A stretch of DNA of 64,000 nt from Hyphomicrobiales bacterium (GTDB lineage Bacteria > Pseudomonadota > Alphaproteobacteria > Rhizobiales > JAJFHC01). The notes under the pieces are model-generated. The model saw only the letters and a list, made by a program, of their open reading frames with translations. It had not been told where the DNA came from and searched no databases. Numbering within the stretch: position 1 is the stretch's first letter; the number at the start of each line of letters is the position of its first letter. Shown here in pieces: positions 3,600-40,081 of the stretch. Location of the stretch: assembly GCA_965198845.1 (NCBI GenBank), contig CBDAQD010000001.1, positions 119,778 to 183,777 on the forward strand, given 5' to 3'. The position numbers and the translations under genes are program-made.

Positions 3600-3604
3600 G
3601 GCCC

Positions 3605-24178: not shown

Positions 24179-25243
24179 TTAAAGAGGTCCAAGATTGCCG
24201 CCACGGGCGGATCCGATGAAGCCGACGACCTTGCGGACATCGTTCATGATGGGCGCGGCAATCGCCCGCGCCTGTGCCGCGCCGGCGCTCAGCAGGCTGT
24301 CGATGTGATCCGGATTGTCCATGAGCTTGGACATTTCCGTCGCGATCGGACTCAGCTTCTCGACCGAGAGATCCGCCAGATCCTGCTTGAACGTGGAGAA
24401 CTGACCGCCGCCATATTGCGACAGCGCGCCCTCGACTGTGGTCTCGTTGAGAGCCGCGTAAATGCCGACAAGATTTGCTGCTTCCGGCCTCTCCTCCAGT
24501 CCATCCGGCTCGCTCGGCAACGGTTCTGGATCGGTCTTCGCCTTGCGGATCTTCTTGGCGATCGTATCGGCATCGTCGGTCAGATTGATGCGGGACAGGT
24601 CGGACGGATCCGACTTGCTCATCTTCTTGGTACCGTCACGCAATGACATGACGCGCGTGGCCGGGCCTGTGATCAGCGGCTCGGTCAGCGGGAAAAATTC
24701 CGGATCGAAACCGTTGGCTGCAATCGAGTCTGCGAAATCGACATTGAATTTCTGGGCAATGTCGCGCGTCAGTTCGAGATGCTGCTTCTGGTCGTCACCG
24801 ACCGGGACGTGGGTTGCCTTGTAGGCCAGAATGTCGGCGGCCATCAGCGCCGGGTATGCGAACAATCCGACCGAGGCGTTCTCCCGATGCTTGCCGGCCT
24901 TCTCCTTGAACTGGGTCATGCGGTTGAGCCAGCCCATGCGCGCGACGCAGTTGAAGACCCATGCGAGTTCCGCATGCTCTGCGACCTGGCTCTGGTTGAA
25001 GACGATGTGTTTCTCGGGGTCGATACCGCTGGCAACAAACGCCGCCGTCACTTCGCGCGTGTTATGAGCGAGTTCCGCCGGATCCTGCCAGACCGTGATC
25101 GCGTGCTGATCCACGACGCAGTAAATGCAGTCGTGGGTATCCTGCAGAGCAACGAAACGCGTGATCGCTCCGAGATAGTTCCCCAGATGAAGGTTTCCGG
25201 TCGGCTGAACGCCGGAAAAGACACGCGATGCATGAGCGGTCAT
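24179..25243 (-). CDS. trpS: Tryptophan--tRNA ligase
   Basis: 354 aa class I aaRS with HIGH-like ([12 protein letters not shown]) and KMSKS motifs. Confidence 0.96.
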
Positions 25244-25324
25244 AGTTCTCTGACTCCTGTTAGCGCGGGCGGTATATGGCCCAATCGCCGGGGCAGACGC
25301 AAGCCCTTCGCATCGGTGTAATCG

Positions 25325-26884
25325 TCAGCGTTTGCGGAAATAGCCGATCAGTTCGGAAGCGCGCGCCGCGCCGGTCAGCTCGGTGGCAACAAAAAACACT
25401 GCGGCTCCGCCAGCGACCATTCCGGCCAGTACGAGAATCCGCATTTCCAGGGCAACGTCGACGCTGAACCAGGGCGCAAGCCAGATCTGTGCGATCCAGA
25501 GCACACCGCCCATCACCGCACTTGCCAGGATGATCAGCGGCACGCGGCGCCGGTTCTGTTCGTCGAAGAAGAACTGGCCACGTTTTTCAAGCGCCCAGGC
25601 CAGCAAACCGACATTGATCCATGCGGCAACAGAGGTGGCCAGCGCGATGCCGATATGCCCGAAGAACGGGAAAAGAGCGAGGCTTCCGGCGATGTTGGCC
25701 GCGACGCCGACGCCTGCAAACAGCATCGGTGTGCGGGTGTCCTCGCGGGCGAAAAAGCCGGGCGAGAACACCTTGATGAGGACAAAGGCCGGCAGGCCCA
25801 CGGCAAAGGCGGCAAGCGCCATGCCGGTCTGCATGGTGTCCGCCGCCGTGAACACGCCGCGCTCGAACAGGACATGGATGATCGGCAGGGGCATCGCCAC
25901 GAGAGCCGCCGCTGCCGGCACGGTCAGCAGCATGGCAAACTCCAGCGCCCGGTTCTGGCTTTCGTCCGCCCCTTGCATGTCTTCGGCCCGCAGTTTGCGG
26001 GACAGATCGGGCAGCAGGACGATCCCGATGGCGATACCGACAACGCCCAGCGGCAACTGATAGACCCGGTCCGCGAAATAGAGATAAGAGACGGCGCTGT
26101 CCTGGAACGAGGCGATGATGGTGCCGATCAGCAGATTGACCTGGGTGATCCCGCCGGCGATCACACCAGGAATTCCCAGCGTGACAAGGCGACGGACGCC
26201 ATCGGTCATTCGCGGGCGGCGCAGTTTCAGAAAATAGCCTTCGCGGCGCGCTGCCCAGATCAGCATCAGAAGCTGCAACAGGCCGGCGACCGACACGCCC
26301 CAGGCCAGCATGGTGCCGGTCAGCACCTTGTCATCCCAGAACGCGAACGCCGCGATGGCCAGAAGGCCGATCAGGACGATGTTGAGGATGATGGGTGCGG
26401 CGGCAGCGGCGGCGAATTTGTTAACGCTATTGAGGATGCCGCTGTAGAGCGCCACCAGGGACATGAACATGAGATAAGGGAAAGCGATGGCCGTCAGCAC
26501 ACGGGCAAGATCAAGCTTGTCGGGCGTATCGCTGAAGCCGGGCGCGATGACATAGATCAGCCAGGGCATGCTGATTTCGGCGATGACCGTGATCGTGATC
26601 AGCGCCACCAGAAGCGCCGACAGCGCCTCCTCGCCGAACCGGCGTGCAGAGTCCTGCCCCTCCCCGACCACCCGCTTGGAGAACAGGGGCACGAACGCGG
26701 CATTGAACGCCCCCTCCCCGAACAGGCGGCGGAACAGGTTTGGAAACCGGAAGGCCACAACAAAGGCGTCGGCCACCGGTCCGGTTCCGAGGATGGCGGC
26801 AAACAGCATGTCTCGGATGAAACCCAGCACCCGACTGATCAGTGTCATGCCGCCAACAGTTGCGGCCGATCTCAGCAGCGTCAT
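25325..26884 (-). CDS. murJ: Lipid II flippase MurJ (MviN)
   Basis: 519 aa polytopic membrane protein with the MurJ family N-terminus (FPNLFRRLFGEGAFNAAFVPLF). Confidence 0.95.
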   Translation of the reverse strand: MTLLRSAATVGGMTLISRVLGFIRDMLFAAILGTGPVADAFVVAFRFPNLFRRLFGEGAFNAAFVPLFSKRVVGEGQDSARRFGEEALSALLVALITITVIAEISMPWLIYVIAPGFSDTPDKLDLARVLTAIAFPYLMFMSLVALYSGILNSVNKFAAAAAAPIILNIVLIGLLAIAAFAFWDDKVLTGTMLAWGVSVAGLLQLLMLIWAARREGYFLKLRRPRMTDGVRRLVTLGIPGVIAGGITQVNLLIGTIIASFQDSAVSYLYFADRVYQLPLGVVGIAIGIVLLPDLSRKLRAEDMQGADESQNRALEFAMLLTVPAAAALVAMPLPIIHVLFERGVFTAADTMQTGMALAAFAVGLPAFVLIKVFSPGFFAREDTRTPMLFAGVGVAANIAGSLALFPFFGHIGIALATSVAAWINVGLLAWALEKRGQFFFDEQNRRRVPLIILASAVMGGVLWIAQIWLAPWFSVDVALEMRILVLAGMVAGGAAVFFVATELTGAARASELIGYFRKR

Positions 26885-26942
26885 GATTCGTCAGTATGGG
26901 AAGGCTTTTCCGCAATACAAGCGGGAGCTTGCATCACAGTAC

Positions 26943-29759
26943 TCACTCTGCCGCCGCGACCTCGTCCGAAGACTTGTCCTCGGCCTTGTCCGCAGCCTTG
27001 GTCTTAGGCGAGAGAATTGCCATGAGGTGACGACGGATTGCCGCCTGCCGGTTGCCGTTGGTGATCTTCTGACCGGTCAGGTCCTTGACATAGAAGACGT
27101 CGACGGCGCGCTCGCCGAATGTGGCGATATGGGCCGATGCGATGTTGATATTCAGACGGTAGAACGCGCTGGTCAGATCGTAGAGCAGGCCCGGCCGGTC
27201 GAGACCGGCGACCTCGATGACCGTGAAGATGTTCGAGCTCTCGTTGTCGAGCAGGACCTGCGGCTCAACGGTGAACGCCTTGATGCGGCCCTTCGGACGC
27301 GCCTGCTTGGCGATCATCTCCGGCAGGCGCACCTCCCCGCGCAGCGCCTTTTCCATGGTTTCGGCAATGCGCCGGGCGCGGCGCATTTCGTCTTCCGAAT
27401 TCTCGAATTCGCGCTGGATCATGATGGAATCAAGCGCCATGCCGTTGGCGGTCGTGAAGATCTGGGCATCGGCGATATTGGCCCCGGAAGCCGCACAGGC
27501 GCCGGTGAGCACCGCCAGAAGACGCGGGTGGTCGGCTGTGAAGACGGTTAGTTCGGTAATGGCCGTGAACTCATCGGTCTTGACCTCGGTCACGACGGCA
27601 TCGCCGGACTCGCGGGCACGCGTGATGAGCCTGGCATGGTCGACCTGGCGGTCGACCCCGACATTGAGCCAGTAAGGCTCGTAATGCATGTCGAGATAGT
27701 CCTGCATGCGCTTCTTCGGCCAGTCGGCGAAGCGTTCCCTGAACAGGTCCTGCGCCTCGGCGACACGTTCGTCACGGGCGATCGCCGTATGGCCGCCCGC
27801 CAGCACCGGCTCGGCCTCGTAATAGAGCGTGCGCAGAAGCTGGCCCTTCCAGCCGTTCCACACGCCCGGCCCGACGGCCTTGATATCGGCAACGGTCAGG
27901 ATGATCAGGAGCTTGAGTCGCTCCGGGCTCTGCACGATCTCGCAGAAGTCGAGGATGGTCTTGAAGTCGTTGAGGTCGCGCATCTGGGCGAACGTGCTCA
28001 TGACCAGATGGTTCTCGACCAGCCACGCTGCTGTTTCCGTCTCCGCGGCGTCGAGCCCGAAGCGGGGTCCGAGCTTGCGCGCCACCCGGGCGCCGGCGAT
28101 CGAGTGGTCCTCCTTACGGCCCTTGGCGATGTCATGCAGGAACTGGGCGACGTAAAGCGCGCGGCGGCTCTTCTTGACCGTGTGGATGATCTTGTCGGAG
28201 AGCGGGTGTTCGCCGGCCAGCTCGCCGCGGTCGATCTGTGCGAGCACGCCCACCGACTGCAGCAGGTGCTCGTCCACCGTGTAGTGGTGGTACATGTTGA
28301 ACTGCATCATGGCGACGATGCGGCCGAATTCCGGGACGAATTTTCCGAGCACGCCGGCCTCGTTCATCTTGCGCAGAATGGTCTCGGGATCGTTGCGAGA
28401 GGTCAGCGTCTCCATGAACAGGCGGTTGGCTTCCGGATCGTTGCGGACGTCCTTGTCGATCAGCCTGAGTGAACGCGTGACCAGCTGCAACACGTTGGGG
28501 TGGATCGCCACATTGTGTCTGTCGGCCAGGTAGAACATGCGGATCAGGTTGACCGGATCCTTCCTGAAAGCCTCGTCGTCACGCACGGTGATGCGGCCGG
28601 CGTCGAGGTCGAACACTTTCGACTCTGTGATGCCTGACACCTTGCGCTTGCGGAGTTGGGCGAACATCCGGCTCATCATCGGCGCCTTCTTGACCTTCTC
28701 CGCCTCCAGCACCGAACACAGGATACGAGTCAGATCGCCGACGTTCTTGGCGATGAGAAAGTAGTGCTTCATGAAGCGTTCGACGTGACTGAGACCGCCG
28801 TGGGCGGTGTAGCCGAGCCGTTCGGCAAGTTCGGGCTGATGCTCGAAGCCGAGACGGTCCTCTCCCCTGCCCGTCATGAAATGCAGATGGCAGCGCACCG
28901 CCCAGAGGAAGTCCTCGCACTTGCTGAATTTGCGGTATTCCGATGCCGTGAAGACGCCGGCGCGCACAAGCGCCGCGCTGGTCGGCACCCGGTAATAATA
29001 CTTGCCGATCCAGAACAGCGTGTGCAGGTCGCGCATGCCGCCCTTGCCGTCCTTGACGTTGGGCTCGACCTTGTAGCGCGACTCGCCGCTGCGCTGATGG
29101 CGCACGTCGCGCTCGATCAGCTTGGTCTCGATGAATTCCGCGCCGGTTCCGGCGACAACTTCGCTGTCGAAGCGTTCCGCCAGCGACCCGAACAGAGCCT
29201 TGTCGCCCCAGAGGTATCGCGCCTCGAGGATGGCGGTGCGGATGGTAAGATCGGATTTAGACAGCCGCATGCACTCATCGACGCTGCGGGTGGCGTGACC
29301 CACCTTGAAGCCGAGATCCCAGAGCAGATAGAGCATGTACTCGACCACGCTCTCGCCCCAGGGTGTCTGCTTGTAGGGCAGCAGGAACAGGAGGTCGATG
29401 TCGGAGCCGGGCGCCAGGGTGCCGCGGCCGTAGCCGCCCACCGCGACGACGCAGATGCGCTCCGCGGCGGACGGGTTCTTCGCCATGTAGATGTGCGTGA
29501 CGGTGAAGTCGTAAATGACCCGAATCAGCTCGTCCTGGATGTGGGACAGGTTGGCCGCGCAGCGCGTCCCCCTGCCGTCGGCCATGAGGCGCGCCTCGGC
29601 CACCTTGCGGCCCTCAGCTACGGTTTCCTTGAGGTGCTCGAGGACGTGCTTGCGCAGTGCCGTGTCGCTGCCGCCGTGCTGCTTGAACAGGGCCGTCAGT
29701 TCGCCGCGCAGGCGGTCGGCGTCGATCAGGTCCGTCGGATCTTTGATGGCCTCGGCCAT
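26943..29759 (-). CDS. glnD: Bifunctional uridylyltransferase/uridylyl-removing enzyme GlnD
   Basis: 938 aa with a nucleotidyltransferase N-terminus, an HD domain and two C-terminal ACT domains. Confidence 0.96.
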   Translation of the reverse strand: MAEAIKDPTDLIDADRLRGELTALFKQHGGSDTALRKHVLEHLKETVAEGRKVAEARLMADGRGTRCAANLSHIQDELIRVIYDFTVTHIYMAKNPSAAERICVVAVGGYGRGTLAPGSDIDLLFLLPYKQTPWGESVVEYMLYLLWDLGFKVGHATRSVDECMRLSKSDLTIRTAILEARYLWGDKALFGSLAERFDSEVVAGTGAEFIETKLIERDVRHQRSGESRYKVEPNVKDGKGGMRDLHTLFWIGKYYYRVPTSAALVRAGVFTASEYRKFSKCEDFLWAVRCHLHFMTGRGEDRLGFEHQPELAERLGYTAHGGLSHVERFMKHYFLIAKNVGDLTRILCSVLEAEKVKKAPMMSRMFAQLRKRKVSGITESKVFDLDAGRITVRDDEAFRKDPVNLIRMFYLADRHNVAIHPNVLQLVTRSLRLIDKDVRNDPEANRLFMETLTSRNDPETILRKMNEAGVLGKFVPEFGRIVAMMQFNMYHHYTVDEHLLQSVGVLAQIDRGELAGEHPLSDKIIHTVKKSRRALYVAQFLHDIAKGRKEDHSIAGARVARKLGPRFGLDAAETETAAWLVENHLVMSTFAQMRDLNDFKTILDFCEIVQSPERLKLLIILTVADIKAVGPGVWNGWKGQLLRTLYYEAEPVLAGGHTAIARDERVAEAQDLFRERFADWPKKRMQDYLDMHYEPYWLNVGVDRQVDHARLITRARESGDAVVTEVKTDEFTAITELTVFTADHPRLLAVLTGACAASGANIADAQIFTTANGMALDSIMIQREFENSEDEMRRARRIAETMEKALRGEVRLPEMIAKQARPKGRIKAFTVEPQVLLDNESSNIFTVIEVAGLDRPGLLYDLTSAFYRLNINIASAHIATFGERAVDVFYVKDLTGQKITNGNRQAAIRRHLMAILSPKTKAADKAEDKSSDEVAAAE

Positions 29760-29940
29760 GGCGGTCTTCGGCTGTCCTCGTGGTGGCGATTGCGCGGCGC
29801 AAGCGGCGCTGCGCGCTACGGCTCCGGTCTAAAGCATAGCAGCTTCGAGCGAAAGACCGACTATCGAACCGATGCGACCTGCCTATTGAATTGGCAGGCC
29901 GGTGACAGTGGCAAATGTGTTGAAGCGGAATTGCTCCAGC

Positions 29941-30228
29941 CTAACTAATCAGCAGGACGAAAAAAATTGGATAAACAGAAAATGCGCCGAGCGCCTTCCA
30001 ATATTTAGACCGAAATAGGTAGATAACTCCGATAAGAGCGGGAACAAATATCAAAGGATGGAAATACCTACCTGCTCCATACGCTAATGCAAGTGCCCCG
30101 GCCTCAGAGCCCAAAACAAAACCGAATCCGAGCAACGCCAAGAGTGGCAGCGCAACAGAGGTTAGAAATCCCGAGATAACTTCTTTGAGAATTTCAGATC
30201 TTTTGTTTTGACTCATTCTGACACTCAA
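29941..30228 (-). CDS. Hypothetical small membrane protein (3 predicted TM helices) in an AT-rich insertion
   Basis: 95-aa ORF in a stretch of markedly lower GC than the flanks. It has three hydrophobic segments and no recognisable family. Confidence 0.45.
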   Translation of the reverse strand: MSVRMSQNKRSEILKEVISGFLTSVALPLLALLGFGFVLGSEAGALALAYGAGRYFHPLIFVPALIGVIYLFRSKYWKALGAFSVYPIFFVLLIS

Positions 30229-30442
30229 ATTTCTTGAAAACTCATGTTAGCGTGACCCGAAGTTGTTAAGGAATCATGTCCAGTTCACTGGCCAAGATGA
30301 GCGCGATTGTCTGCTGTACAGGCCGGCCAAGAAACGCTATCCAGTCCCCATGCCCGCGCTTCGGCACAGCTTCAACCGAATATCGTGACGTCCGATCAAG
30401 GGCGTCAGCACTGGTTGTGCGGGCGGGTTTTATAATCCTGTA

Positions 30443-30493
30443 AAGCGCCAGATCAGCGTGCACGGCCGGGTTCGATTCCCGGGGCGCCTACCA
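30443..30493 (+). other. tRNA-like 3' element: T-arm, acceptor 3' strand and encoded CCA, with a possible short 5' pairing strand but no anticodon arm
   Basis: CCGGGTTCGATTCCCGG is a canonical T-stem-loop (30466-30482), followed by GGCGCCT-A-CCA. Upstream AAGCGCC (30443-49) can pair 6/7 with the 3' strand. No D or anticodon arms are recognisable. Confidence 0.5.
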
Positions 30494-30764
30494 TTACCTC
30501 CTTCACTCGCTTATTTGCAGTTTACGTTAACTGGAGATTTCATAGTCAATTTCGTTGCATTTGAGCAACATTACTGGTGCATATGTGCACAAACGGCGAA
30601 TTTCTGCCATGACAACTGTTGCCAAGGCGCACGATCTGCAGTATCTCCCCGCTCCCCGTCACGTCTGTCTGAATGACTGTGGGCCGAGTTCCGGATACTC
30701 GCCCGGTGCGGACCGCCCTGCGGATGCCGTATGCCGACATCGGATCAGACGATCGGGAGACCCT

Positions 30765-30816
30765 GCATATGCAGCTCGGTCGGCGAGCGTTTCGGGTTCG
30801 ACTCCCGGCATATGCT
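30765..30816 (+). other. tRNA-shaped minihelix lacking the anticodon arm (acceptor stem, D-arm, T-arm)
   Basis: GCATATG-CA-GCTC-GGTCGGC-GAGC-GTT-TCGGGTTCGACTCCCGG-CATATGC-T has a 7-bp acceptor stem, a D stem-loop with GG and a canonical TpsiC arm. Only 3 nt sit where the anticodon arm and variable loop should be. Caveat: the acceptor pairing comes from the palindrome GCATATGC. Confidence 0.4.
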
Positions 30817-30817
30817 C

Positions 30818-30888
30818 AGCGATGTAGCTCAGTGGGAGAGCACCAGACTTTAATCTGGCGGACGAGGGTTCAACTCCCTCCATCCTCA
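30818..30888 (+). tRNA. tRNA gene (Lys-UUU-like anticodon region, but aberrant)
   Basis: TA-GCTCAGTGGGAGAGC D-arm, CCAGA-CTTTAA-TCTGG anticodon arm and GAGGGTTCAACTCCCTC T-arm. An antisense pseudo-ORF MEGVEPSSARL is typical of tRNA genes. In my reading the anticodon loop is one nt short, and the 5' acceptor strand (AGCGATG) mispairs with the 3' strand (CATCCTC) at its first 3 nt. It may be a pseudo-tRNA or a junction-damaged gene. Confidence 0.6.
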
Positions 30889-31429
30889 AGAGGCCTTGAA
30901 AGCCTTTGGGTTAAAACCCGACACGTTTAGGTCGTGTTCAAAATTAGGGGTTTCGGGGCCGGCCTGCGAGGCCGGCCGAACGCCGCTCATGGCCTTTGGG
31001 TCGTGGCACGGCACGACGCCGGCACCGCCCTTCGCCGGCGGCCCGCGCACCGGAAGACGGTGAAGGCGGGTCCGGACCAGGCGGCATGCGGATCTTCCGC
31101 AGGGCCACCCCGTCCGGGCTCCCCGACACCCGCTCGCCGGAGCCCGCCGCCAGCCGAGGTCAGCCGGCCCCGGGGCTCATTTGTCTGACGGGCAGAGCCT
31201 TGACCCGTCACGCTTCCGAAGGCGCAGGCCTTGGGAAACACCATGCCGGTGAACCGGCGCACGGAATTCGAACCGGACGGCAATGCGTCCCCCGTCACCA
31301 CCCCGGGGGAGCCACGCGGACCCGTCTGGACATTGAAGAGGGTGGATCAGCCTGACTATCAGGCGCCAACACGAGAAAGGACGTTAGAGCGCATGACATA
31401 GCGACGCTGACGACGAAAGGAGAAGACCC

Positions 31430-32572
31430 ATGTTGAAGATTTTTGAGAGGATGCTCGGTTTCGAACGCGTCCTTATCCGAGAGAACGAGCGCGCGGTCGC
31501 GCTCCACAAGGGACGTTTCATGGGAATCCTAGGTCCGGGTGAACACCGGCTGCCGAACCGCGGCAGGCGGCTCGAGATCGAAAAGCACGATCTGACACGC
31601 CCGGAATTCGTCTCGGCGTTTGATACGGCGCTGTACCGCGAGATGCCGGATGAGGCGGCACAGCACCTCACCGAGGTGCGGACCGGCCGGCACGAGGTCG
31701 CGCTCGTGTTCCGCGACGGGCGTCTGCACGGCATCCTGAAGCCGGACGGACGTTCGGTGTTCTGGACCGATGCCGGACCGTGGACCGTCGAAACCGTCGA
31801 TGTAGCCGACGAGCTCGAGGTACCGGTCGATATCGCCAAGCGGCTGATCCGTGCGGCGAAGCTCGACCGTGTCGTCCAGTTCGATGTGGGTGAGGGCCAG
31901 ACCGGTTTGCTCCACGTCGACGGCGAGTTCGTCCGGACGCTCGGGGCCGGTGCCCACATGTTCTGGAACGTCGGCCGTAAGGTTCAGGTCAAGCTGATCG
32001 ACACCCGTCGTCAGGCCCTTGACGTGGCCGGGCAGGAGATCCTGACCAAGGATCGTGTCACGATCCGGATCAACGTTGCCGCGGAGTTCCGCGTCACCGA
32101 TCCGGTGAAGGCCGCAACCGAGGTCAAGGACTTCACCGAGACGCTCTACAGGGCGCTGCAGTTCGCGTTCCGCAAGACGCTCGGCACCAAGACGCTCGAC
32201 CAGATCCTTGAGAACAAGGTGACGGTCGACGCCGAGGCTGCCGAGAAGGTCCGCGCGGAGATGGCCGACATCGGTGTCGAGGTCGGTGAGATCGCCCTGA
32301 AGGACGTGATCCTGCCGGGCGACATGCGCGAGATCCTGAACCAGGTCGTGGCCGCGGAGAAGGAGGCGGAAGCCAACGTCATCCGCCGGCGCGAGGAGAC
32401 GAACGCCACGCGTTCGCTGCTTAACACGGCCAAGGTCATGGCCGAGAACCCGGTCATGCTCCGGCTCAAGGAGCTCGAGGCTCTCGAGCAGATCGCCGAG
32501 AAGGTTGAGCGCCTGACGGTGCACAACGGTACCGGCGGGCTCATGAACGACCTCGTCAAGCTGCGCGACTGA
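31430..32572 (+). CDS. SPFH/band-7 domain protein (stomatin/HflK-like, no obvious TM anchor)
   Basis: 380 aa whose C-terminal half matches the SPFH fold plus a coiled coil (ILTKDRVTIRINVAAEFRVTDPVKAA...DIGVEVGEIALKDVILPGD). AAAGGAG SD lies 7 nt upstream. A GC-rich hairpin follows the stop at 32601-32630. Confidence 0.8.
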   Translation: MLKIFERMLGFERVLIRENERAVALHKGRFMGILGPGEHRLPNRGRRLEIEKHDLTRPEFVSAFDTALYREMPDEAAQHLTEVRTGRHEVALVFRDGRLHGILKPDGRSVFWTDAGPWTVETVDVADELEVPVDIAKRLIRAAKLDRVVQFDVGEGQTGLLHVDGEFVRTLGAGAHMFWNVGRKVQVKLIDTRRQALDVAGQEILTKDRVTIRINVAAEFRVTDPVKAATEVKDFTETLYRALQFAFRKTLGTKTLDQILENKVTVDAEAAEKVRAEMADIGVEVGEIALKDVILPGDMREILNQVVAAEKEAEANVIRRREETNATRSLLNTAKVMAENPVMLRLKELEALEQIAEKVERLTVHNGTGGLMNDLVKLRD

Positions 32573-32991
32573 CGCGGCCCGGGAGGTCACCGGAAAAGAT
32601 GCCGCCCCCTGGCGATGTGCGGGGGGCGGCGTTATCAACAATATGAGTTGATTCACTGTGCACCGCTATCGGCGCGAATGAATAATCAAAATTATTATAT
32701 TCGCCGGCAGGCAATCAGTTCTTATCTCGCGAGCGCACGCTTCGGTCTGCAGTAGATTTTAACGCGGAGTTTTTGACAGTAAATGGGCCTCTAAGAGGTT
32801 CAGGCCTATTTCGAACCTCAGATATTGCCGCGCTTACTTGTCGATAAACTGATTTTCGGATTTCACTCCGATCCATATGCGTTCCTACCTTCTCCCTCGG
32901 CATCAAGAGTTCCTCCCCGGATGAACGCGCGTTAACGAATCCTAATGATTGTTAACGAATCGATGATATCAGTCGCGAATCACCGGTTCCA

Positions 32992-33010
32992 CTGCAATTT
33001 GCAGTATAAT
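32992..33010 (+). promoter_or_regulatory. Palindromic operator (CTGCAATTTGCAG) abutting a TATAAT -10 box, 35 nt upstream of the deaminase-fusion ORF
   Basis: Perfect 13-bp palindrome at 32992-33004 immediately followed by TATAAT (33005-33010). The ATG is at 33045. Two direct copies of GTTAACGAATC (32929-39, 32952-62) lie just upstream. Confidence 0.5.
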
Positions 33011-33044
33011 GAATTAGAATTGTGTAAATTTTGGGCCCCGCTAA

Positions 33045-34628
33045 ATGAATTTAAACGAGCAAAGTTCACGACCAGAATTGTTGATCGGACTTGTAGGTCC
33101 CATTGGCGTGGACATGGATACAGTGACTGAATGCTTGAAGGAAGAACTTGGTAAGGTTCGTTACAAATCAGAAGTGATACACGTCACTACGATAATGCGT
33201 GCAATTGAAAATGCGGAATCAGTTGATGAGAACGATTATGCCGCCAAATATCATTCTCTAATCGACCTCGCGGATGAATTTCGAAAAAGATGTAAGGACA
33301 ACTCAGCCCTAGCTGGCCTCGCTATGACAGAAATACGCAGTCGACGAGAGGCCCTTACATCCGAACTGAGAACCAAATTCGACGCCAAAGACGATGATGT
33401 TATTCCATCAGAGTCTACCGCCTACATTATCAGGCAATTTAAGCGACCTGAAGAAATCAAACTTATGAGAACTACGTATGGAAGAAAATTCATTCAGTTT
33501 TCTGTTTATTCCAGCCGAAGAGAGCGAATTGAGCGGATAACAGGAAAAATTCAAAAAAACAGCAGACGCGCCTTAGAGCGATCAGATTGTGAATCTGAAG
33601 CCACAAATCTGGTACAAAAGGATTTTAATGAAAAGAATAATGAATTTGGCCAACGAATAAGTGATGTATTTCACACTGGTGATGTGTTTGTTTACGGGAA
33701 CGATAAGAAAGATATCTCTCATACAGTTTCGAGATTCATCAGAGCATTCTTTGGTGACAATTCAATTTCGCCAAATCGAGATGAATACGGCCTTTACACC
33801 GCTGCGGCATCGTCTCTGAGGTCTGCCGACCTTTCCCGACAGGTTGGAGCGGCGATTTTTTCAGACGCAGGCGAAATTATCTCGATGGGTAGCAACGAGG
33901 TGCCGAAGTCCGGCGGTGGAACTTACTGGCACGGAGATGAAAATCTTCACAGAGATGTCGATGAGGGTCACGACCCAAATCACAAGAGGAAGACTGAGAT
34001 CCTATTTGATTTTATATCTCAATTGGCAAAGCTGAAGCGCTTGGAAGGAGTTGGAGACACAGAAGCCGAGATCGATAATTTTGCGGAGGAATTACTGAAA
34101 GAAGACCCAATTAAGAATTCACTGCTTATGGACATAATCGAATTTGGACGTATGACACATGCGGAAATGTCCGCGATCATGGATGCAGCGCGAACAGGTC
34201 GATCTACAAAAAACGCAACTCTATTTTGCACGACTTTTCCCTGTCACATGTGCGCGAAACACATAGTAGGTGCTGGCATAAAGCGTGTCGTTTTTTTGGA
34301 GCCATATCCCAAGAGTTATGCCGACGACCTCCATCGGGATTCCATTACATTCGAAGATCGATCGCCTGAGAAGGTTCTCTTCGAACCATTCATTGGAATT
34401 TCGCCAAGGCGGTACCGCGACATATTTGAGAAAGGCAGAAGAAAGGACAGTGAGGGGAACTTAGTTGAGTGGTATGAAGGCGAACCACTTCCTAGAATTG
34501 AAGATAGAAGCGCTGCATACCTGTCCAACGAGCAACCGGCAATTGCATCCAGCCTAGGCGACATTTTCGAGGAGCTTCAGGCTCAAGTATCCCCTAAGCC
34601 CACTCGTGACTCTGATCAACCGAATTAG
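33045..34628 (+). CDS. Kinase-like N-terminal domain fused to a dCMP/cytidine-deaminase-fold domain (candidate nucleotide-depleting anti-phage deaminase)
   Basis: 527 aa. The C-terminus carries the CDA zinc motifs (THAEMSAIMDAAR ... FCTTFPCHMCAKHIVGAGIKRVVFLEPYP), close to the dCMP deaminase and ComEB consensus HAE..PCxxCA..AGI. The N-terminus LIGLVGPIGVDMDTV resembles a degenerate dephospho-CoA-kinase/dNMP-kinase P-loop (IGLTGGIGSGKSTV). The gene sits in a low-GC cassette. Confidence 0.75.
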   Translation: MNLNEQSSRPELLIGLVGPIGVDMDTVTECLKEELGKVRYKSEVIHVTTIMRAIENAESVDENDYAAKYHSLIDLADEFRKRCKDNSALAGLAMTEIRSRREALTSELRTKFDAKDDDVIPSESTAYIIRQFKRPEEIKLMRTTYGRKFIQFSVYSSRRERIERITGKIQKNSRRALERSDCESEATNLVQKDFNEKNNEFGQRISDVFHTGDVFVYGNDKKDISHTVSRFIRAFFGDNSISPNRDEYGLYTAAASSLRSADLSRQVGAAIFSDAGEIISMGSNEVPKSGGGTYWHGDENLHRDVDEGHDPNHKRKTEILFDFISQLAKLKRLEGVGDTEAEIDNFAEELLKEDPIKNSLLMDIIEFGRMTHAEMSAIMDAARTGRSTKNATLFCTTFPCHMCAKHIVGAGIKRVVFLEPYPKSYADDLHRDSITFEDRSPEKVLFEPFIGISPRRYRDIFEKGRRKDSEGNLVEWYEGEPLPRIEDRSAAYLSNEQPAIASSLGDIFEELQAQVSPKPTRDSDQPN

Positions 34629-34652
34629 AATCTTCCCGCGATCACGCCACGA

Positions 34653-35399
34653 TCACTTCGCGTCGTGGAAGATGATGCCGAGGGTGTGGCGGCGGCCGGA
34701 TCGCAATCGGCTCACGCCGTGGCGCATGTTGACCCGGTATATGCCGCGTTTTCCTTCGACCGGCCGGTGGTGGACCGGGAAGATCGCCGCATCGCCGCGT
34801 GTGAGCGGCACGACCTCCGCACGCGACTGCATGCGCGGACGCTGCTCGGTCAGCACGAATTCGCCGCCGGTGAAGTCTTTGCCCGGATCCGACAGCAGCA
34901 CCGCAACCTGGAGCGGAAAGACAAGCTCACCGTAGACATCCTGGTGAAGACAGTTGTAGTCGCCCTCGCCATACTGCAGCAGCAGGGGCGTCGGCCGTGT
35001 CTGGCCGGCGTCGTGACAGCGCCCGAGATAGACCTCGAGCGTCTCCGGATAACGCGTCTCCAGTTTCATCGCTTCGTTCCACCGGTTGGCGATGCGGGCG
35101 AGGGGAGGGTAGAGCGTCTCGCGCAATTCGGCGACGACCTCCGGCAGCGGATAGGCGAAGTACTTGTACTCGCCGCGGCCGAATCCGTGCCGGCTCATAT
35201 GGATATGGCTGCGGAACGGCGCCTCTTCCGGATAGAGGCCGGCGACCGCCCGGCACTGTGCCGCAGGCAGCAGCTTTTCTATCAAAGCAAAGCCGGAATC
35301 TTTCAGTTCGCCTTCGATGGCCGTCCAATCTGTCGCATGCATGGCTTTTTCCGCGCAAAGTCGCCGTGAGTCCCTTGACTTCATATTGGGGCTCCACAT
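34653..35399 (-). CDS. 2OG-Fe(II) oxygenase superfamily protein (prolyl-4-hydroxylase-like)
   Basis: HxD...H iron triad candidates (LHQDVYGE ... MRHGVSRL) and a P4Hc-like fold. Start uncertain, with an alternative Met at MHATDW. Confidence 0.7.
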   Translation of the reverse strand: MWSPNMKSRDSRRLCAEKAMHATDWTAIEGELKDSGFALIEKLLPAAQCRAVAGLYPEEAPFRSHIHMSRHGFGRGEYKYFAYPLPEVVAELRETLYPPLARIANRWNEAMKLETRYPETLEVYLGRCHDAGQTRPTPLLLQYGEGDYNCLHQDVYGELVFPLQVAVLLSDPGKDFTGGEFVLTEQRPRMQSRAEVVPLTRGDAAIFPVHHRPVEGKRGIYRVNMRHGVSRLRSGRRHTLGIIFHDAK

Positions 35400-35550
35400 A
35401 TACCCGCCACCCGTTTCCTGCGCCCGTTGCGGCTCGCGGTCCGTGGTGAGGGATTTCAGGCGGAAAAATTAACCGTCGCGGCACGATTTTGGATGCATTC
35501 GTCTGCGCCGGGAGTAAGGTTTATAGAGACATAAAAACAGGACCAAAACC

Positions 35551-35742
35551 ATGTCCTATTATGCTGCAGCTCTGGATCGGGCGATCGAAGTGTTCGGCAC
35601 CCGTGACAGGGCTGAAGAATGGCTCGAAAAAATGAGCAGCGATCTAGGGTCGGCGCCGAAGAAACTTCTGGATACCAAAGACGGCTTTGAGCGGGTGTTG
35701 CGGCATCTGCACTCGGTCGATATTGCGCTCAATCTGCACTGA
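35551..35742 (+). CDS. ParS/MbcA-like antitoxin domain protein (DUF2384), apparently orphan
   Basis: 63 aa whose C-terminus WLEKMSSDLGSAPKKLLDTKDGFERVLRHLHSVDIAL matches the DUF2384 toxin-binding domain consensus of RES-Xre antitoxins (WL..P...LGG..PLDLL.T..G...V...L..IE.G). No RES-domain gene follows. The 3' end overlaps the convergent acyltransferase gene. Confidence 0.55.
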   Translation: MSYYAAALDRAIEVFGTRDRAEEWLEKMSSDLGSAPKKLLDTKDGFERVLRHLHSVDIALNLH

Positions 35743-37207
35743 GCGGCTGCTCCGCCTGACCTGTCGCTGACGCTGCGCGCGGCTGCGCAACGGCAACGCG
35801 CGGTTTGAGCAGGTGGGCGATCGAATTGGCGTAAAACGCGAGCAGGCCGGCGTCGTCGCGGTTTGCCCGATAGGCTGCTCCATCCGCAACCACCAGCCTC
35901 CGCATGGTCAGCATGCGCAAACCCACCTCGATTCCATATTCCAGGTCAGCCCGCGGCACGTGGACGTGGGCTCCGTTGGCTTTGAGACGCGTGACCAGAT
36001 CGAGCACGCGCGCTTTCAGTTCCAACGCGGTGAAGGACCGGTCCGGATCAGCCATGAAGACCGTCGCCACCATGGAAACCGGCAGGGCAGGGACGATGGC
36101 CGCCACCGCCGCCATGAGCCTGTGGCCGAGCTGCTCGATCTCTGCGTTGCGCTTGACGTCGCCGGCCGTCCGGAAGTCGACGTTGCGGGCGGCAAGATAG
36201 CGCCGCAGGGAAACCGGCTCGCCGAAGCTGACGCAGGCATAGCCGTTCCGGTACCAGCGTCCGCGCAGCGCAAGGCCGATATTGCGCAGGACGAATTGCA
36301 GCACGGCCAGCGGCGAGAAATGGAATTCCGCCTTGCCGTCGTTCGTGGTGGCGGTCGTCAGCACCCGGTCCTCAAGAATGCGGTCGTAGTTGAGCGCAAC
36401 GGGAATGAACACCACGTCCCGCGCGCCGTCGGGATCGAAGCCCGAAACCATGTAACTGAGCAGACCAAACTTCGGCACTCTTATACGGCCGTCGCGGCTC
36501 AGGCCACCTTCCGGAAACACAGCCTGGGTTACGCCGGAGCGGGTCGCCATGTGCACATAGCGGGACAGTACCTTGCGGTAGAGCGGATCTCTGGAATTGC
36601 GGCGGATGAAGTAGGCGCCCATGGACGCGATCAGGCGGCGCAGCCCCCAGATCCGGGCCCATTCGCCAACGGCATAGCTGAGCGCGGACGACGCTGCCGC
36701 CAGATAGGTGACGAGCACATAGTCCATGTTGGAGCGGTGGTTGATGACGAAGACCACGGCTGAGTCGGGTGCCACCTTGCTCAGCGATTCCTCATTCAGA
36801 TACCCCAGACGCACCCGGTAAAGCAGCGTCGAGAGCCAGCGAGCGCCACGCGTGCCGATCCGGAAATACGCATAGGCGCTGAAGGACGGCACGATCTCGC
36901 GGGCATACCGGCGCGCGCGCTCCATGGCGACGTCGCGTGGAACGCCCGCCTCGTTGGCATGTCTTTCGACCGCGTGCAGCACCTCATGGTCATGGAGGAC
37001 CTGGTCGATGAGAACCTGGCGGCGGGTCAGCTTGAACGGCTGGATATGCAGATGAAGCCGAGCGTTCAGTTCTTCGATCGCCCGGTTGGCGCGGCGGCGC
37101 AATGCCCAGCGCACGCTCGGAATGAGCAGCCGGTCGAGCAACGCCCACATGGCGAGGACCGCTGCCAGCACGACCACCCACATCGGTAGCGTGACAGTTG
37201 TGAACAT
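35729..37207 (-). CDS. Glycerol-3-phosphate/lysophospholipid acyltransferase family protein (PlsB-like)
   Basis: 492 aa with an N-terminal TM segment, the HX4D motif (VINHRSNMDYVL) and the acyltransferase blocks FPEGGLSRDG. Confidence 0.8.
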   Translation of the reverse strand: MFTTVTLPMWVVVLAAVLAMWALLDRLLIPSVRWALRRRANRAIEELNARLHLHIQPFKLTRRQVLIDQVLHDHEVLHAVERHANEAGVPRDVAMERARRYAREIVPSFSAYAYFRIGTRGARWLSTLLYRVRLGYLNEESLSKVAPDSAVVFVINHRSNMDYVLVTYLAAASSALSYAVGEWARIWGLRRLIASMGAYFIRRNSRDPLYRKVLSRYVHMATRSGVTQAVFPEGGLSRDGRIRVPKFGLLSYMVSGFDPDGARDVVFIPVALNYDRILEDRVLTTATTNDGKAEFHFSPLAVLQFVLRNIGLALRGRWYRNGYACVSFGEPVSLRRYLAARNVDFRTAGDVKRNAEIEQLGHRLMAAVAAIVPALPVSMVATVFMADPDRSFTALELKARVLDLVTRLKANGAHVHVPRADLEYGIEVGLRMLTMRRLVVADGAAYRANRDDAGLLAFYANSIAHLLKPRVAVAQPRAASATGQAEQPLSAD

Positions 37208-37249
37208 CCGCTGCTCCCTTCACCGCGAGAGTGCAGTGCCGGACGCGGG

Positions 37250-40081
37250 TCAGGCAAGATCCTTTCGCTGAGCAGCCTTAAGCCGGTAAATCAGGTCAAG
37301 CGCCTCCCGCGGCGTCAGATCATCCGGCAGGATTTCGTCCAGCGCCTCATCTAAGGCGCTTCTGCCAGGCGCGCGCGGTGCCGCCGCCCCCTGAGGCCGG
37401 GCGGCTGTGAACAGGGGCAGGTCGTCGACCAGGTCCGCCTTGGGACTGTTCTGCTCGCCGCGCTCCAGAGCGGCCAGCACATCGGCCGCCCGGTCGATGA
37501 CGACCGGCGGCAGCCCCGCAAGCTTGGCGACCTGGATACCATAGGAGCGATCCGCCGATCCGGGTGCGACCTCATGCAGGAAGATAACCTCGCCGTCCCA
37601 TTCCTTGACTTTCATCGTGGCGTTGGCGAGCCGGGGCAGGGTCTCGGCAAGTGCGGTCAGTTCATGGAAGTGGGTGGCGAACAGGGCCCGGCACCGATTG
37701 ACCTCGTGCAGATGCTCGACGCAGGCCCAGGCAATCGACAGACCGTCGAAAGTTGCGGTGCCGCGGCCGATCTCGTCGAGGATGACGAGGGACCGCTCGC
37801 CGGCCTGATTGAGGATGGTGGCGGTCTCGACCATTTCGACCATGAAGGTGGAGCGGCCGCGCGCCAGATCGTCCGCCGCGCCGACCCGGCTGAAGAGCCG
37901 GTCGACCACACCGATATGCGCATCCGCTGCGGGAACGAAGGATCCCATCTGCGCCAGTATCGCAATGAGGGCGTTCTGGCGCAGGAATGTCGACTTACCC
38001 GCCATGTTCGGACCGGTCAGGAGCCAGATCGAGCGGCTTTCGGCCTCGCCGTCGCCTGTCGGCACGGAGAGATCGCAGTCGTTGGGCACGAAACCCGCCT
38101 CGCCGCCGGCGGCAAGTGCCGCTTCGACAACCGGATGACGGGCTGCCGTGATCCGGAACGCGAGGCTGTCGTCGACCCTGGGTCTGGTCAGGCGCACGCG
38201 CTCGGCAAGATCGCCGAGGGCCGCCGCGACATCGAGCTCGGCCAGAGCGTCGGCAACGGAACCGATGTTCCGGCTGGCCGCATCGACCGCCGCCACGAGC
38301 CGGTCGAAAATCTCCAGCTCGATACCGACGGCACGGTCGGCCGCAGACGAGATGCGCGACTGCAGATCGGCAAGCTCGGCGGTCGTAAACCGCATCGCAT
38401 TGGCCATGGTCTGGCGATGGATGAAGTCTGCGTCATGTGGCGGGTTCATCAGGGTCGCGCCGTGCTGTGCCGAGACCTCGATGAAATAACCCAGCACGTT
38501 GTTGTGCTTCACCTTGAGCGACTTGATGCCCGTCGCTTCCGCATATTGCGCCTGCAGACCGGCGACGATCTTGCGGCTCTCGTCGCGAAGGCGCCTGTTC
38601 TCGTCGAGCGCCTCGTCGTAGCCGGGCCTGACGAAGCCGCCGTCGCGCGCCATCAGCGGCAGCTCATCGTCAAGCGCCACCTCGAGGAGCTGTTCAAGAC
38701 TCTCGTCGGCCGACCCCAGAACCGCGAGCGCCGAGGCGACCTCATCGGGCGGCGGCGCCAGGCCGGCCTTGTCCGTCAGCGCCGGCAATTCGCGGGCGAC
38801 GGAGAGGCCGTCACGCAGCGCCGCCAGATCGCGGGGACCGCCGCGACCGACGGTGAGCCGCGCAAGCGCGCGGGCGAGATCAGGGCACTGGCGCAGGGCT
38901 TCGCGCATCCGCCCCCGGATCTCATAGGCTTCGACGAAGAAGTCGACCGCGTCCAGCCGCCGGTTGATCGCCGTTGGATCGGTCAGCGGCGCGGCGAGGC
39001 GCGCAGCCAGCTTGCGCGCGCCGGATCCGGTGACCGTGCGGTCGACCACCGACAACAGGGAGCCCTTGCGTTCGCCCGAAAGCGTGCGCACGAGTTCCAG
39101 ATTGGTCCGTGTCGCCGGGTCGATCATCATGGCCGTGCCGCGGCGCTCACGCACCGGCGGCGCCAGGACCGGCATCCGCCCGACCTGGGTGACGGCGACA
39201 TAGTCGACCAGGGCACCGCAGGCGGCGATCTCCGGGCGGCTGAAGTCGCCGAAACTGTCGAGGGCGGCCACCTTGAAGACGTCCTTCAGGCGGCGCTCGG
39301 CGGTCTGGCTGTCGAAGCGGCTCGAGGCCAACGGCGTGAGGGCCGTGTCGAAGCCGATCCAGACTTCGCCAAATTCCGGATCCTGATAGAGCGACTCGGG
39401 CAGAATGATCTCGGACGGTTCGAGCCGGGCCAGATCCGTGGCGAGCGCGCGCGGCCCCGTCTCCGTGACCATGAGCGTGCCGGTCGAGATATCGACCCAG
39501 GCGAGCGCCAGAGGCCGATCGTCGCTTTTGACCCGGGACACCGCCGCCAGGAAATTGTGCCCTCGGGTGTCGAGCAGACTGTCTTCGGTGAGCGTTCCGG
39601 GTGTGACGTGGCGGACGATCTCACGGCGCACGACGGCCTTGGCGCCGCGCTTCTTGGCTTCCGCCGGATCTTCGGTCTGCTCGCAGACGGCGACGCGAAA
39701 TCCCTGCTTGATCAGGCGCTCGAGATAATCCTCCGCGGCATGAACCGGAACCCCGCACATGGGAATGTCGTCACCCTGGTGACGGCCGCGCTTGGTCAGC
39801 GTGATACCGAGCGCCTCCGACGCGACGACCGCGTCGTCGAAGAACAACTCGTAGAAGTCGCCCATGCGGTAGAACAGCAGACTGCCGGGATTGGCGTCCT
39901 TGATCTCGTGATACTGCGCCATCATCGGCGTCATGGCGGCGGTCTTGGCCTCTGGCTTTGCCGGCGCCGGCGCATCATCGCGCGGTGAATCGGCGACCGG
40001 TTCCGGAGTGCACGGCGGCGTCTGGGCTGCAGCAGAATTCGACATGGCCGGAACCCTACCAGATGGAGCCCCGGCGCTCAC
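37250..40081 (-). CDS. mutS: DNA mismatch repair protein MutS
   Basis: The conserved N-terminus [34 protein letters not shown] begins at about 39934, preceded by a possible roughly 50-aa extension. Walker [10 protein letters not shown] and the HTH C-terminus are present. Confidence 0.93.

Follow-up and report, generated by a model that had tools for sequence, protein, structure and literature searches.

A Twin tRNA-Like Module Upstream of Slipin Genes in Hyphomicrobiales

The 64-kb stretch of Hyphomicrobiales DNA analyzed here (contig CBDAQD010000001.1; hereafter the window) carries three tRNA-like elements on its plus strand at 30400–30888, ahead of a gene for a slipin, a stomatin-like protein of the SPFH/Band 7 group. 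We found that this cluster comprises two different things. Elements 2 and 3 very probably represent the two units, A and B, of a twin tRNA-like module that is conserved ahead of slipin genes in many Hyphomicrobiales, and both units were shown to be tRNA mimics selected for their cloverleaf/elbow shape, not for decoding. Element 1 is unrelated to the module and is a resident copy of a tRNA(UAU) family otherwise found in phage arrays and on a plasmid. We hold our best explanation as a whole, which joins the identity of the module to processing of the slipin leader, with moderate confidence; the specific mechanism, in which the slipin 5′ leader would be handled by the tRNA-maturation machinery, is offered more tentatively.

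A Cluster of Three T-Loop Motifs

Exactly three copies of the T-loop motif GGTTCRAYTCC are present in the window (30469, 30795, and 30867), each on the plus strand and all inside 420 bp. The chance expectation, taken from 100 shuffles, was 0.10, and a count of three was reached in none of the shuffles (0/100). The cluster is real and non-random, and an earlier reading made from the letters alone (the sequence-only reading), which had reported three T stem-loops in 420 bp, was borne out by this count.

We read the region 30380–30900 directly and searched the window with ARAGORN and with Rfam at gathering thresholds, adding a permissive Rfam scan of 30200–31400. ARAGORN called a single gene in the whole window, element 3 (30818–30888), as “tRNA-???” with the anticodon (tt), which reflects a 6-nt loop, and element 3 was also the only match to Rfam at gathering (tRNA, RF00005, 53.8 bits, with a gathering threshold of 29 bits). 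The permissive scan returned tRNA-Sec at 30401–30488 (21.7 bits), YrlA at 30789–30841 (29.3 bits, E = 5.5e-4 for the 1.2-kb search), and a permuted tmRNA at 12.9 bits that covered just 17 nt of the element 1 T-loop. Generic tools thus call only the aberrant element 3, which is formally close to the outcome that the sequence-only reading had named as speaking against itself, namely one ordinary tRNA with the other motifs failing covariance models. This generic result is misleading, in that a model specific to the family recovers elements 2 and 3 jointly, as described below.

Elements 2 and 3 in the Window

Element 2 (30765–30816, plus strand), which we assign to unit A, has no anticodon arm. 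Its acceptor strand GCAUAUG (30765–30771) is followed by CA, a D-arm (30774–30788), the linker G-UU, a T-arm (30792–30808), and the 3′ acceptor strand CAUAUGC (30809–30815), then by U73 and by CA instead of CCA; the acceptor has 7 bp, its pair 3:70 is A-U, and the element was not reported by Rfam at gathering. The fold proposed earlier (acceptor, D-arm, 3-nt linker, T-arm, 3′ acceptor strand) is the minimum free energy structure and makes up 94% of the ensemble (z = −2.8). The same reading had supposed that the GCATATGC palindrome alone could create the acceptor stem. This idea was not upheld, as the palindrome is not enriched in the window (10 copies vs. 4.6 expected, with 7/100 shuffles reaching 10) and is simply the element 2 acceptor stem. 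GCATATG palindromes as a repeated operator were ruled out for the same lack of enrichment.

Element 3 (30818–30888, plus strand), assigned to unit B, has an acceptor of 4 bp, formed by GAUG (30821–30824) with CAUC (30881–30884), and no CCA. Its D-arm (30827–30841) precedes an anticodon stem (30843–30847/30854–30858) closed by the loop CUUUAA (30848–30853), and its T-arm (30864–30880) places the T-loop 563 nt upstream of the slipin ATG at 31430 on the same strand. Both irregularities noted earlier are present: the loop has 6 nt, and the outer acceptor mispairs, with the Rfam tRNA alignment marking 1:72 and 3:70 as non-pairs.

Distribution and Covariation of the Twin Module

A metagenome scan with the window slipin protein returned 80 loci. 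The distinct slipin loci for which 750 nt or more of upstream sequence was available numbered 71, and slipin identity among loci ranged from 56% to 94%. Homologs over this same range of identity number in the hundreds and include proteins that NCBI names “slipin family protein” in Mesorhizobium, Nitratireductor, Hoeflea, Devosia, and Breoghania. T-loop motifs were present on the coding strand at −308 to −564 from slipin in 71/71 distinct loci, compared with a background of 46 motifs in 514 kb, both strands counted. Two full-size units 68–82 nt apart were found in 64/71 loci, three of which had a third, short unit; 5/71 loci had a full unit and a short unit; and 2/71 had a single motif, yet both gave full-length matches to the family model. 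The module was also found in a Mesorhizobium huakuii-type contig, in Devosia sp. CN2-171, and in Nitratireductor sp. XY-223. Among the loci compared, the genes around slipin vary and slipin is the sole constant partner.

We then scored an alignment of 59 distinct sequences (A4), from which the window was excluded, with a double-cloverleaf structure. In this alignment 96.7% of cells were paired, compensatory changes occurred in 27/39 pairs, and 365 cells were compensatory. These values were reached in 0/500 shuffles, and structures slid along the alignment paired only 36–49%. All eight helices covary, and there is hardly any variation in the D- and T-loops, which the tRNA elbow requires. The covariance model built from A4, and thus without the window (R1), matched the window at 30759–30900 over its full length with 91.8 bits (E = 2e-24) and deleted precisely the 17 positions of the unit A anticodon arm, in agreement with the earlier claim that element 2 is missing exactly that arm. 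The best R1 score in ~1.6 Mb of other Hyphomicrobiales DNA (the GlnD-locus set), used as a negative control, was 21.7 bits.

The same model gave 99.7 bits on L100, the 62-kb contig of the closest relative, found by a GlnD protein search (its GlnD relative, P0001, is 94% identical). Units A and B differ between the window and L100 at six positions, all of them unpaired or pair-preserving, and no stem is broken: the differences concern the base 5′ of the acceptor, the linker (GUUU vs. GCUU), both T-loops, and, in unit B, position 2 (G·U to A-U) and the anticodon loop (CUUUAA vs. CGUUUAA), those in unit A being confined to unpaired positions. The block 30612–30975 is 96.7% identical to L100, while slipin is ~93%, the flanking core genes ~86%, and the adjacent spacers 72–78% identical.

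Could the elements be tRNA pseudogenes that decay in the absence of selection? Aberrations are present in the window copies (no anticodon arm, a 6-nt loop, a mismatched outer acceptor), and element 1 is truncated and decayed in L100, as decay would have it. We nevertheless consider this explanation very improbable, given the covariation of every helix, the presence of the pair across genera, and a block in which the window and L100 differ less than they do in coding sequence. The alignment, with its spread of slipin identities, is not one of near-identical strains, and decay would not leave D- and T-arms intact while randomizing only the anticodon loops.

Two side observations concern the short units. 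In L295, L299, and L288, a third T-loop lies 40–48 nt after unit B, and the short unit consists of a GNRA-type hairpin and a T-arm; at the corresponding position (30908–30919) the window has only a degenerate GGGUUAAAACCC hairpin. Loci with one full unit and a short unit, of which there are five, include L261, L270, L286, L302, and L305.

The Units as Non-Decoding tRNA Mimics

Throughout the family, unit A has a covarying 7-bp acceptor and, usually, the anticodon stem CCGGA/UCCGG. Its loop ranges from 4 to 8 nt and has 7 nt in just 21/59 sequences; 46 different loop sequences and at least 12 anticodons occur, and the discriminator base is variable. Pair 3:70 (A4 columns 14/85) is G·U in 37/59 sequences, A-U in 11, and G-C in 6. 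N73-CCA is encoded in ~50/59 copies, with unit B then beginning after 0–3 nt. An outer helix between the unit A CCA and a downstream UGG was not detected (3.05 vs. 3.02 pairs, with 171/500 permutations at least equal). In unit B, only four acceptor pairs covary in most loci, CCA is absent, and the D-stem is invariant; a subgroup (e.g., L289 and L299) has a full 7-bp acceptor. The unit B loop has 7 nt in 57/59 sequences and 6 nt in 2/59, and reads Y32, U33, free 34/35, U36 (43/57), A37, A38, so that 16 different anticodons are represented.

ARAGORN assigned isotypes to many of these units (Phe, Leu, Met, Asn, Thr, Ile, Arg, Lys, Gln, Ser, Cys, Tyr, Asp, Pro, Ala, and “Stop”) and gave many “???” calls with 2- or 4-base anticodons. 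Neighboring units abut or overlap by 1–3 nt in its output, and its Leu, Ser, and Tyr calls are just 72–77 nt long and therefore lack a long variable arm. Rfam reported only “tRNA” in the 20 family loci searched, with 43–72 bits. Such scores for both units in other loci, the isotype calls, and the CCA usually encoded by unit A are all compatible with ordinary decoding tRNAs co-transcribed with slipin, as in tRNA-tufB operons, of which the window copies would merely be mutated examples. We regard this as very improbable, since the anticodons differ at orthologous positions and since unit B in most loci has neither more than four covarying acceptor pairs nor a CCA. The free anticodons, the loops of 4–8 nt that are common in unit A, and the missing long arm in Leu, Ser, and Tyr “isotypes” together indicate that the units do not decode.

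The comparison with the Escherichia coli thrU-tyrU-glyT-thrT-tufB operon, a tRNA-mRNA co-transcript with essential decoding tRNAs and fixed anticodons, is instructive on this point. Abutting cloverleaves upstream of a same-strand protein gene, with no terminator between, are common to both, and tRNA-type processing would split the RNA parts from the mRNA. The module departs from the operon in its free anticodons, its 4- to 8-nt loops, its unit B with usually a 4-bp acceptor and no CCA, and a further 300–450 nt of conserved structure before slipin.

Related loci offer a comparison for the window copies. L224, a related contig whose slipin is 86% identical to that of the window, carries element 1, then a full-length unit A homolog with an anticodon arm and a 6-nt loop, and then a unit B homolog with the loop CUGUUAA. 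L225, the Nitratireductor sp. XY-223 locus (slipin 79% identical), has a “tRNA-Arg(gcg)” followed by a unit with the loop CCUGUAA, and in L100 the 7-nt loop of unit B (CGUUUAA) is called tRNA-Lys by ARAGORN. In the window lineage, unit A has lost a dispensable anticodon arm and one C of CCA, and unit B has lost one loop nucleotide. The absent arm of unit A is the extreme of a loop that is unconstrained across the family, and family features, namely the 4-bp acceptor of unit B and the free loop of unit A, account for the “defects” first noted. The claim of two anticodon-arm-less minihelices has to be reduced to one, element 2, as element 1 is a whole tRNA gene. A search of phage tRNA arrays for counterparts of elements 2 and 3 yielded nothing beyond generic matches to D- and T-arms.

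Integration Scars and Y RNA

The sequence-only reading had left three options open, of which tRNA-derived structured RNA is strongly supported for elements 2 and 3, decay and recombination junctions having failed for them. It had also argued that the T-arm segments are not simple att duplications, and we agree: the three segments differ, and the best repeat is 16 nt of generic T-arm. In favor of integrase scars, whether duplicated att sites or recombination junctions, one could cite the glnD-mutS interval, which is variable between relatives, the low-GC defense gene inserted nearby, and the 3′ fragment of element 1 that is all L100 retains. This origin is nonetheless scarcely credible. No integrase was found within 7 kb on either side in a domain scan of the ten flanking open reading frames (ORFs; 24179–40081), and the T-arms do not repeat a single tRNA 3′ end. 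Elements 2 and 3 moreover possess 5′ acceptor strands and D-arms, which att duplications lack, and their position relative to slipin is fixed across unrelated genomic contexts.

The permissive match to YrlA raised another reading, in which the element 2 T-arm, an acceptor-like hairpin, and the element 3 D-arm would form one permuted domain. YrlA and other bacterial Y RNAs contain a tRNA mimic made of a T-arm, an acceptor-like helix, and a D-arm (Chen et al., 2014, PMC4201824). The module shares these mimic parts, and the match at 30789–30841 spans model positions 28–81, which comprise exactly T-arm, hairpin, and D-arm. However, such a partial match is expected from any two abutting tRNAs, its score falls far short of the 69 bits that RF02553 requires at gathering, and the Ro-binding stem is unmatched and absent from the module. 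There is no adjacent rsr, and no TROVE/Rsr gene was found in the same ten flanking ORFs. The covariation fits two ordinary cloverleaves, backing each unit's own acceptor stem and excluding the hairpin between the 3′ side of A and the 5′ side of B as a conserved fold. We therefore judge a YrlA-like RNA to be the least probable of the explanations discussed here.

The Slipin Leader

A promoter-like site lies upstream of the module at 30618–30646 on the plus strand, with a −35 box TTGCCA (30618–30623), a 17-nt spacer, and a −10 box TATCTC (30641–30646), from which transcription would start near 30653. Across 48 aligned loci, cTTGC and TA(T/A) stand out as conserved columns (T 45/48, G 42/48, T 46/48, A 43/48), the 17 positions between the boxes are unconserved, and TTGNNN-N16-18-TANNNN is matched by 41/48 sequences. 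Conserved boxes around an unconserved spacer are a promoter signature, and this pattern suggests a promoter; a generic sigma-70 scan found nothing at the site. Two palindromes, GTTGC-N6-GCAAC at 30553–30568, which is conserved in L100, and CAAC-T-GTTG at 30612–30620, lie just upstream of or overlap the promoter-like site and could be an operator.

Conservation in a profile of 68 loci spans ~30630 to ~31170. Its first part is a structured 5′ leader domain (30653–30763, plus strand) with the hairpins GGGCCGAG...CUCGCCC and GGUGCGG...CCGUAUGCC and with a GGGA motif just 5′ of unit A. This domain is conserved across the 68 loci, shows compensatory change in 13/16 predicted pairs, and is 94–100% identical to L100, compared with 72–78% for the neighboring spacer. 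After unit B comes a series of plus-strand hairpins (30891–30977), conserved across loci and 96–98% identical to L100: AGGC-CUUGAAA-GCCU (30891–30905), the degenerate T-arm-like GGG-UUAAAA-CCC (30908–30919), CACG-UUUAGGU-CGUG (30922–30936), which covaries (GC:24 vs. CG:20 at one pair), and GGCCGGCC-UGCGA-GGCCGGCC (30957–30977). A G+C-rich distal leader (30990–31170, plus strand) shares the 68-locus conservation and is matched by BLAST in L224 and L225. Further on, ~140 nt at 31190–31330 are gapped in 57–96% of the 68 loci and are specific to the window/L100/L224 lineage. RNAalifold applied to the whole block in two sequences gave no covariation information.

No reading frame is shared between loci in the 300–450 nt before slipin, and no plus-strand terminator-like site lies between unit B and the slipin start codon. 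That slipin is the only conserved neighbor, together with the promoter-like site and the absence of a terminator, suggests that the module lies in a slipin leader.

Proposed Handling of the Leader and a Binding Alternative

We propose that a long leader (~650–800 nt) would be transcribed from the conserved putative promoter ~110 nt upstream of unit A and would be processed like a tRNA-mRNA co-transcript. RNase P and the tRNA 3′-end machinery would cut at unit A and so free it, in most species (7-bp acceptor, N73-CCA), as a small tRNA-like RNA. The slipin mRNA would keep unit B, whose acceptor has 4 bp in most species and which lacks CCA, as its structured 5′ end, and unit B would set the stability or translation of that mRNA. 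Unit A appears to have every feature of an excisable tRNA-like RNA, and unit B those of a module retained on the mRNA. In this specific form the mechanism strikes us as a serious possibility that falls somewhat short of being probable.

Several points weigh against the processing account. The promoter and the co-transcription are both deduced from sequence. By textbook criteria, the 4-bp acceptor makes unit B a poor substrate for RNase P. In the clade formed by the window, L100, L224, and L225, unit A is followed by CA, not CCA, and any CCA-dependent step would be impaired there. The loop geometry of unit B would be superfluous in a pure processing signal and hints at a factor that binds the anticodon loop. 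The sequences in A4 are phylogenetically clumped (Infernal effective sequence number, 2.06). Finally, the apparent novelty of the module is bounded by the sources consulted: Rfam 15 holds no family other than tRNA for it, and a full-text search of a limited set of literature (tRNA-like with slipin or Mesorhizobium) found no description, so that within these two sources the module is apparently undescribed.

Specific tests contradict each of the readings as pseudogene, att scar, genuine tRNA, Y RNA, or tmRNA. The main rival is a role in which the twin mimics act by binding and not by being cut. They would then be a decoy or sensor for a tRNA-binding factor, such as an aminoacyl-tRNA synthetase, a modification enzyme, EF-Tu, an anticodon nuclease, or a toxin, and would either regulate slipin translation in cis, as a riboregulator, or be released to act as an RNA in trans. 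The canonical unit B loop (Y32-U33-NN-U36-A37-A38 in 57/59, with positions 34/35 free) would suit such a factor, as would the almost invariant elbow loops. The G3·U70 pair found in 37/59 copies of unit A, together with N73-CCA, could be used in AlaRS-type recognition, and an anti-phage gene has been inserted beside the locus. On the other hand, the genes beside the module include no conserved candidate for a partner, slipin itself has no PADLOC defense match, and G3·U70 is not universal, being replaced in some copies by the A-U and G-C pairs given above and by A-U in the window, with a discriminator that varies. We consider a binding role rather unlikely, although it deserves to be weighed alongside leader processing.

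More broadly, the leader may be a hitherto unrecognized class of large structured bacterial RNA, conserved over ~0.55 kb, that would couple expression of a membrane scaffold to the state of the tRNA machinery. From a promoter-proximal domain it would run through two complete tRNA mimics and hairpins resembling anticodon arms to a distal domain rich in G+C. Unit A would leave the transcript as a non-decoding tRNA-like RNA that ends in CCA and is possibly aminoacylated (G3·U70), and the preserved loop geometry of unit B would be read by a specific factor. G3·U70 is the AlaRS-type identity pair and is used by tmRNA too. This larger picture is possible but doubtful.

Comparison With Known Systems

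Non-decoding tRNA shapes inside longer transcripts are familiar from plant mitochondrial t-elements and from MALAT1 mascRNA, which are single, eukaryotic or organellar signals for RNase P and RNase Z. As with these, a small tRNA-like RNA may be released from the slipin leader; the module differs in being a bacterial tandem pair in a 5′ leader, and its cleavage is predicted. The tRNA-like domain of tmRNA likewise has an acceptor, a T-arm, and a D-loop without a functional anticodon, and its CCA and G3·U70 recall the unit A family, just as its missing anticodon function recalls the window unit A, which has no anticodon arm at all. Unlike tmRNA, the module has no mRNA-like tag region or pseudoknots, and the window unit A has A3-U70 and no CCA. 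The E. coli thrS operator mimics one specific anticodon arm to bind its own product. The slipin leader resembles it in its tRNA-mimicking hairpins, including the extra 7-nt-loop hairpins after unit B, and differs in that whole cloverleaves with variable anticodons stand before a membrane-scaffold protein with no known RNA binding.

The closest published idea for elements 2 and 3 is that of polycistrons of irregular tRNAs, attributed to Acidobacteria and lying near toxin-antitoxin genes (Mukai et al., 2017, PMC5389517). These too are clustered, non-decoding, and diverse in anticodon, but they are not in slipin leaders of Hyphomicrobiales.

For annotation, the module means that pipelines will label its units as tRNA, as pseudo-tRNA, or with an “undetermined” isotype, so that the tRNA gene sets of Mesorhizobium, Devosia, Nitratireductor, and their relatives become inflated and confused. 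It also offers a natural experiment on which parts of a tRNA are needed in the absence of decoding: acceptor, D-arm, and T-arm are kept with strong covariation, the anticodon arm of unit A can shrink to nothing, and unit B keeps its loop geometry and not the identity of its anticodon. The module further points to a hitherto unstudied connection of a widespread SPFH membrane protein with tRNA-type processing or recognition of RNA, for which it provides a tractable test bed in culturable rhizobia.

Element 1 Is a Long-Variable-Arm tRNA(UAU) Gene

Element 1 (30400–30493, plus strand) is a separate unit upstream of the putative leader promoter and forms a complete 94-nt gene of the long-variable-arm tRNA(UAU) type. 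It has a 7-bp acceptor (GGGCGUC/GGCGCCU), a short D-loop, a 7-nt anticodon loop UUUAUAA closed by a U·U pair, a variable arm (V-arm) GCGC-CAGAUCA-GCGU with a 4-bp stem, a T-arm CCGGG-UUCGAUU-CCCGG, and A73-CCA. The sequence-only reading had taken it for a 3′ fragment; the encoded CCA end that it reported is present, and the 5′ half that it found missing is supplied by the complete cloverleaf. Element 1 was not called by ARAGORN, and its best Rfam match, the tRNA-Sec match of the permissive scan, lies below gathering. A permuted tmRNA was rejected for this element, as its score falls short of the Rfam gathering value of 47 bits, ARAGORN finds no tmRNA, and a complete tRNA structure is present instead.

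A distant BLAST search against plasmids matched 30391–30493 to Cereibacter plasmids at 78% identity. The homolog on Cereibacter sphaeroides plasmid pA is a 90-nt gene called tRNA-Ile(tat) by ARAGORN and tRNA-Sec by Rfam (35.9 bits), and pairwise comparison with it sets the start of element 1 at 30400 and reveals a compensatory difference at pair 4:69. The plasmid copy adjoins toxin-antitoxin, Fic, and DUF927 genes. Pattern scans also found the family in IMG/VR phage tRNA arrays, some of which hold up to 30–34 tRNAs, and in several arrays the gene stands alongside tRNA-Ile(GAU).

We aligned 14 members of this family. The 7-bp acceptor and the 5-bp T-stem both covary, the D-stem has 4 bp with a 4–5-nt loop, the anticodon stem has 6 bp with the near-invariant loop YUUAUAA, and the 4-bp V-stem carries the near-invariant 7-nt loop CAGAUCA (CAGAUUA once, in L224); as the scans demanded both loop sequences, this loop conservation is partly built in. 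A73 and CCA are each present in 13/14 members, and compensatory change occurs in 23/26 pairs. Members of 90–93 nt are common in phage arrays; those at L082 903–993(−), L083 1600–1690(−), L086 10793–10883(−), L087 4754–4845(+), L094 5060–5151(+), L096 4832–4923(+), L098 2064–2154(+), and L081 5010–5099(+) belong to the family. A search of the literature on long-arm UAU tRNAs in phages found no description of this family. Element 1 adds to the picture a family of long-arm tRNA(UAU) genes that is well defined and frequent in the tRNA arrays of phages.

L224 has an ortholog of element 1 in the same place, in which the V-stem changes in a compensatory manner from GCGC/GCGU to GCUC/GAGU. Relative to L100, the window differs by an indel of ~590 bp (window ~29867–30455), and L100 lacks both a 95-amino acid (aa) ORF and two thirds of element 1 on its 5′ side; at ~9860–9905 (minus strand) L100 retains just a mutated T-arm and the 3′ end, CCGGUUUCGUUUCCCGG GGCGGCU GCCA.

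Element 1 is reminiscent of allo-tRNA(UAU), which is abundant, is inactive in translation assays, and lies near transposons and toxin-antitoxin genes (PMC5389517). The two have in common a long V-arm, a short tRNA-Sec-like D-loop, a 6-bp anticodon stem, the UAU anticodon, an association with mobile DNA, and doubtful use in translation. Allo-tRNAs are, however, defined by a 12-bp acceptor branch with an 8/4 or 9/3 division between acceptor and T-stem (Mukai et al., 2017, PMC5389517), and the 7/5 geometry of the element 1 family places it outside that definition.

Genomic Context and Side Observations

The cluster lies between two groups of genes. Upstream, all on the minus strand, are trpS (24179–25243), murJ (25325–26884), glnD (26943–29759), and the ORF for the small membrane protein of 95 aa (29941–30228). 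Downstream, the slipin gene (31430–32572, plus strand) encodes 380 aa with a Pfam Band_7 match (1.7e-29) and matches to stomatin structures, and is followed by genes for an anti-phage dCTP deaminase (33045–34628, plus strand, 43% GC; PADLOC dCTPase 540 bits, NCBIfam NF041025 465 bits), a 2OG oxygenase (34653–35399, minus strand), and a PlsB-like acyltransferase (35729–37207, minus strand), and by mutS (37250–40081, minus strand). L100 has the same layout of mutS, plsB-like, oxygenase, and slipin genes, cluster, and glnD, minus the deaminase. The deaminase gene sits in a low-GC islet (~32600–35000) and is missing from L100, where slipin abuts the oxygenase gene; it looks like a recent single-gene defense insertion.

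GlnD relatives in 80 species-level genomes had identities of at most 66%. ARAGORN found no tRNA upstream of glnD in the 60 of these 80 loci that were scanned, from which we conclude that the module is not tied to glnD. Exact-protein look-ups with the window slipin and deaminase gave no match, and only noise was obtained when the intergenic region was compared by BLAST with the GlnD loci and with the window itself.

The phage tRNA arrays held other unusual genes. Two of them, at L087 9024–9097(+) and L091 9653–9728(−), have a tRNA with the anticodon CUA (amber-suppressor type) that ARAGORN labels “tRNA-Pyl.” Irregular tRNA-like genes that ARAGORN missed or called oddly occur at L082 ~1040–1115(−) and L087 4600–4750(+), and one irregular unit has a GAU anticodon and the non-canonical T-loop GGCAGAG. 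Solitary tRNA-like sequences without an anticodon arm, in which ARAGORN called no tRNA, were found in four viral contigs, at L183 312–348(+), at L162 2085–2118(+), and on the minus strands of L174 (near 3567–3601) and L140 (near 98–132). Each combines a perfect 7-bp acceptor with a D-arm joined directly to a T-arm, and the four compare with ~0.4 expected by chance.

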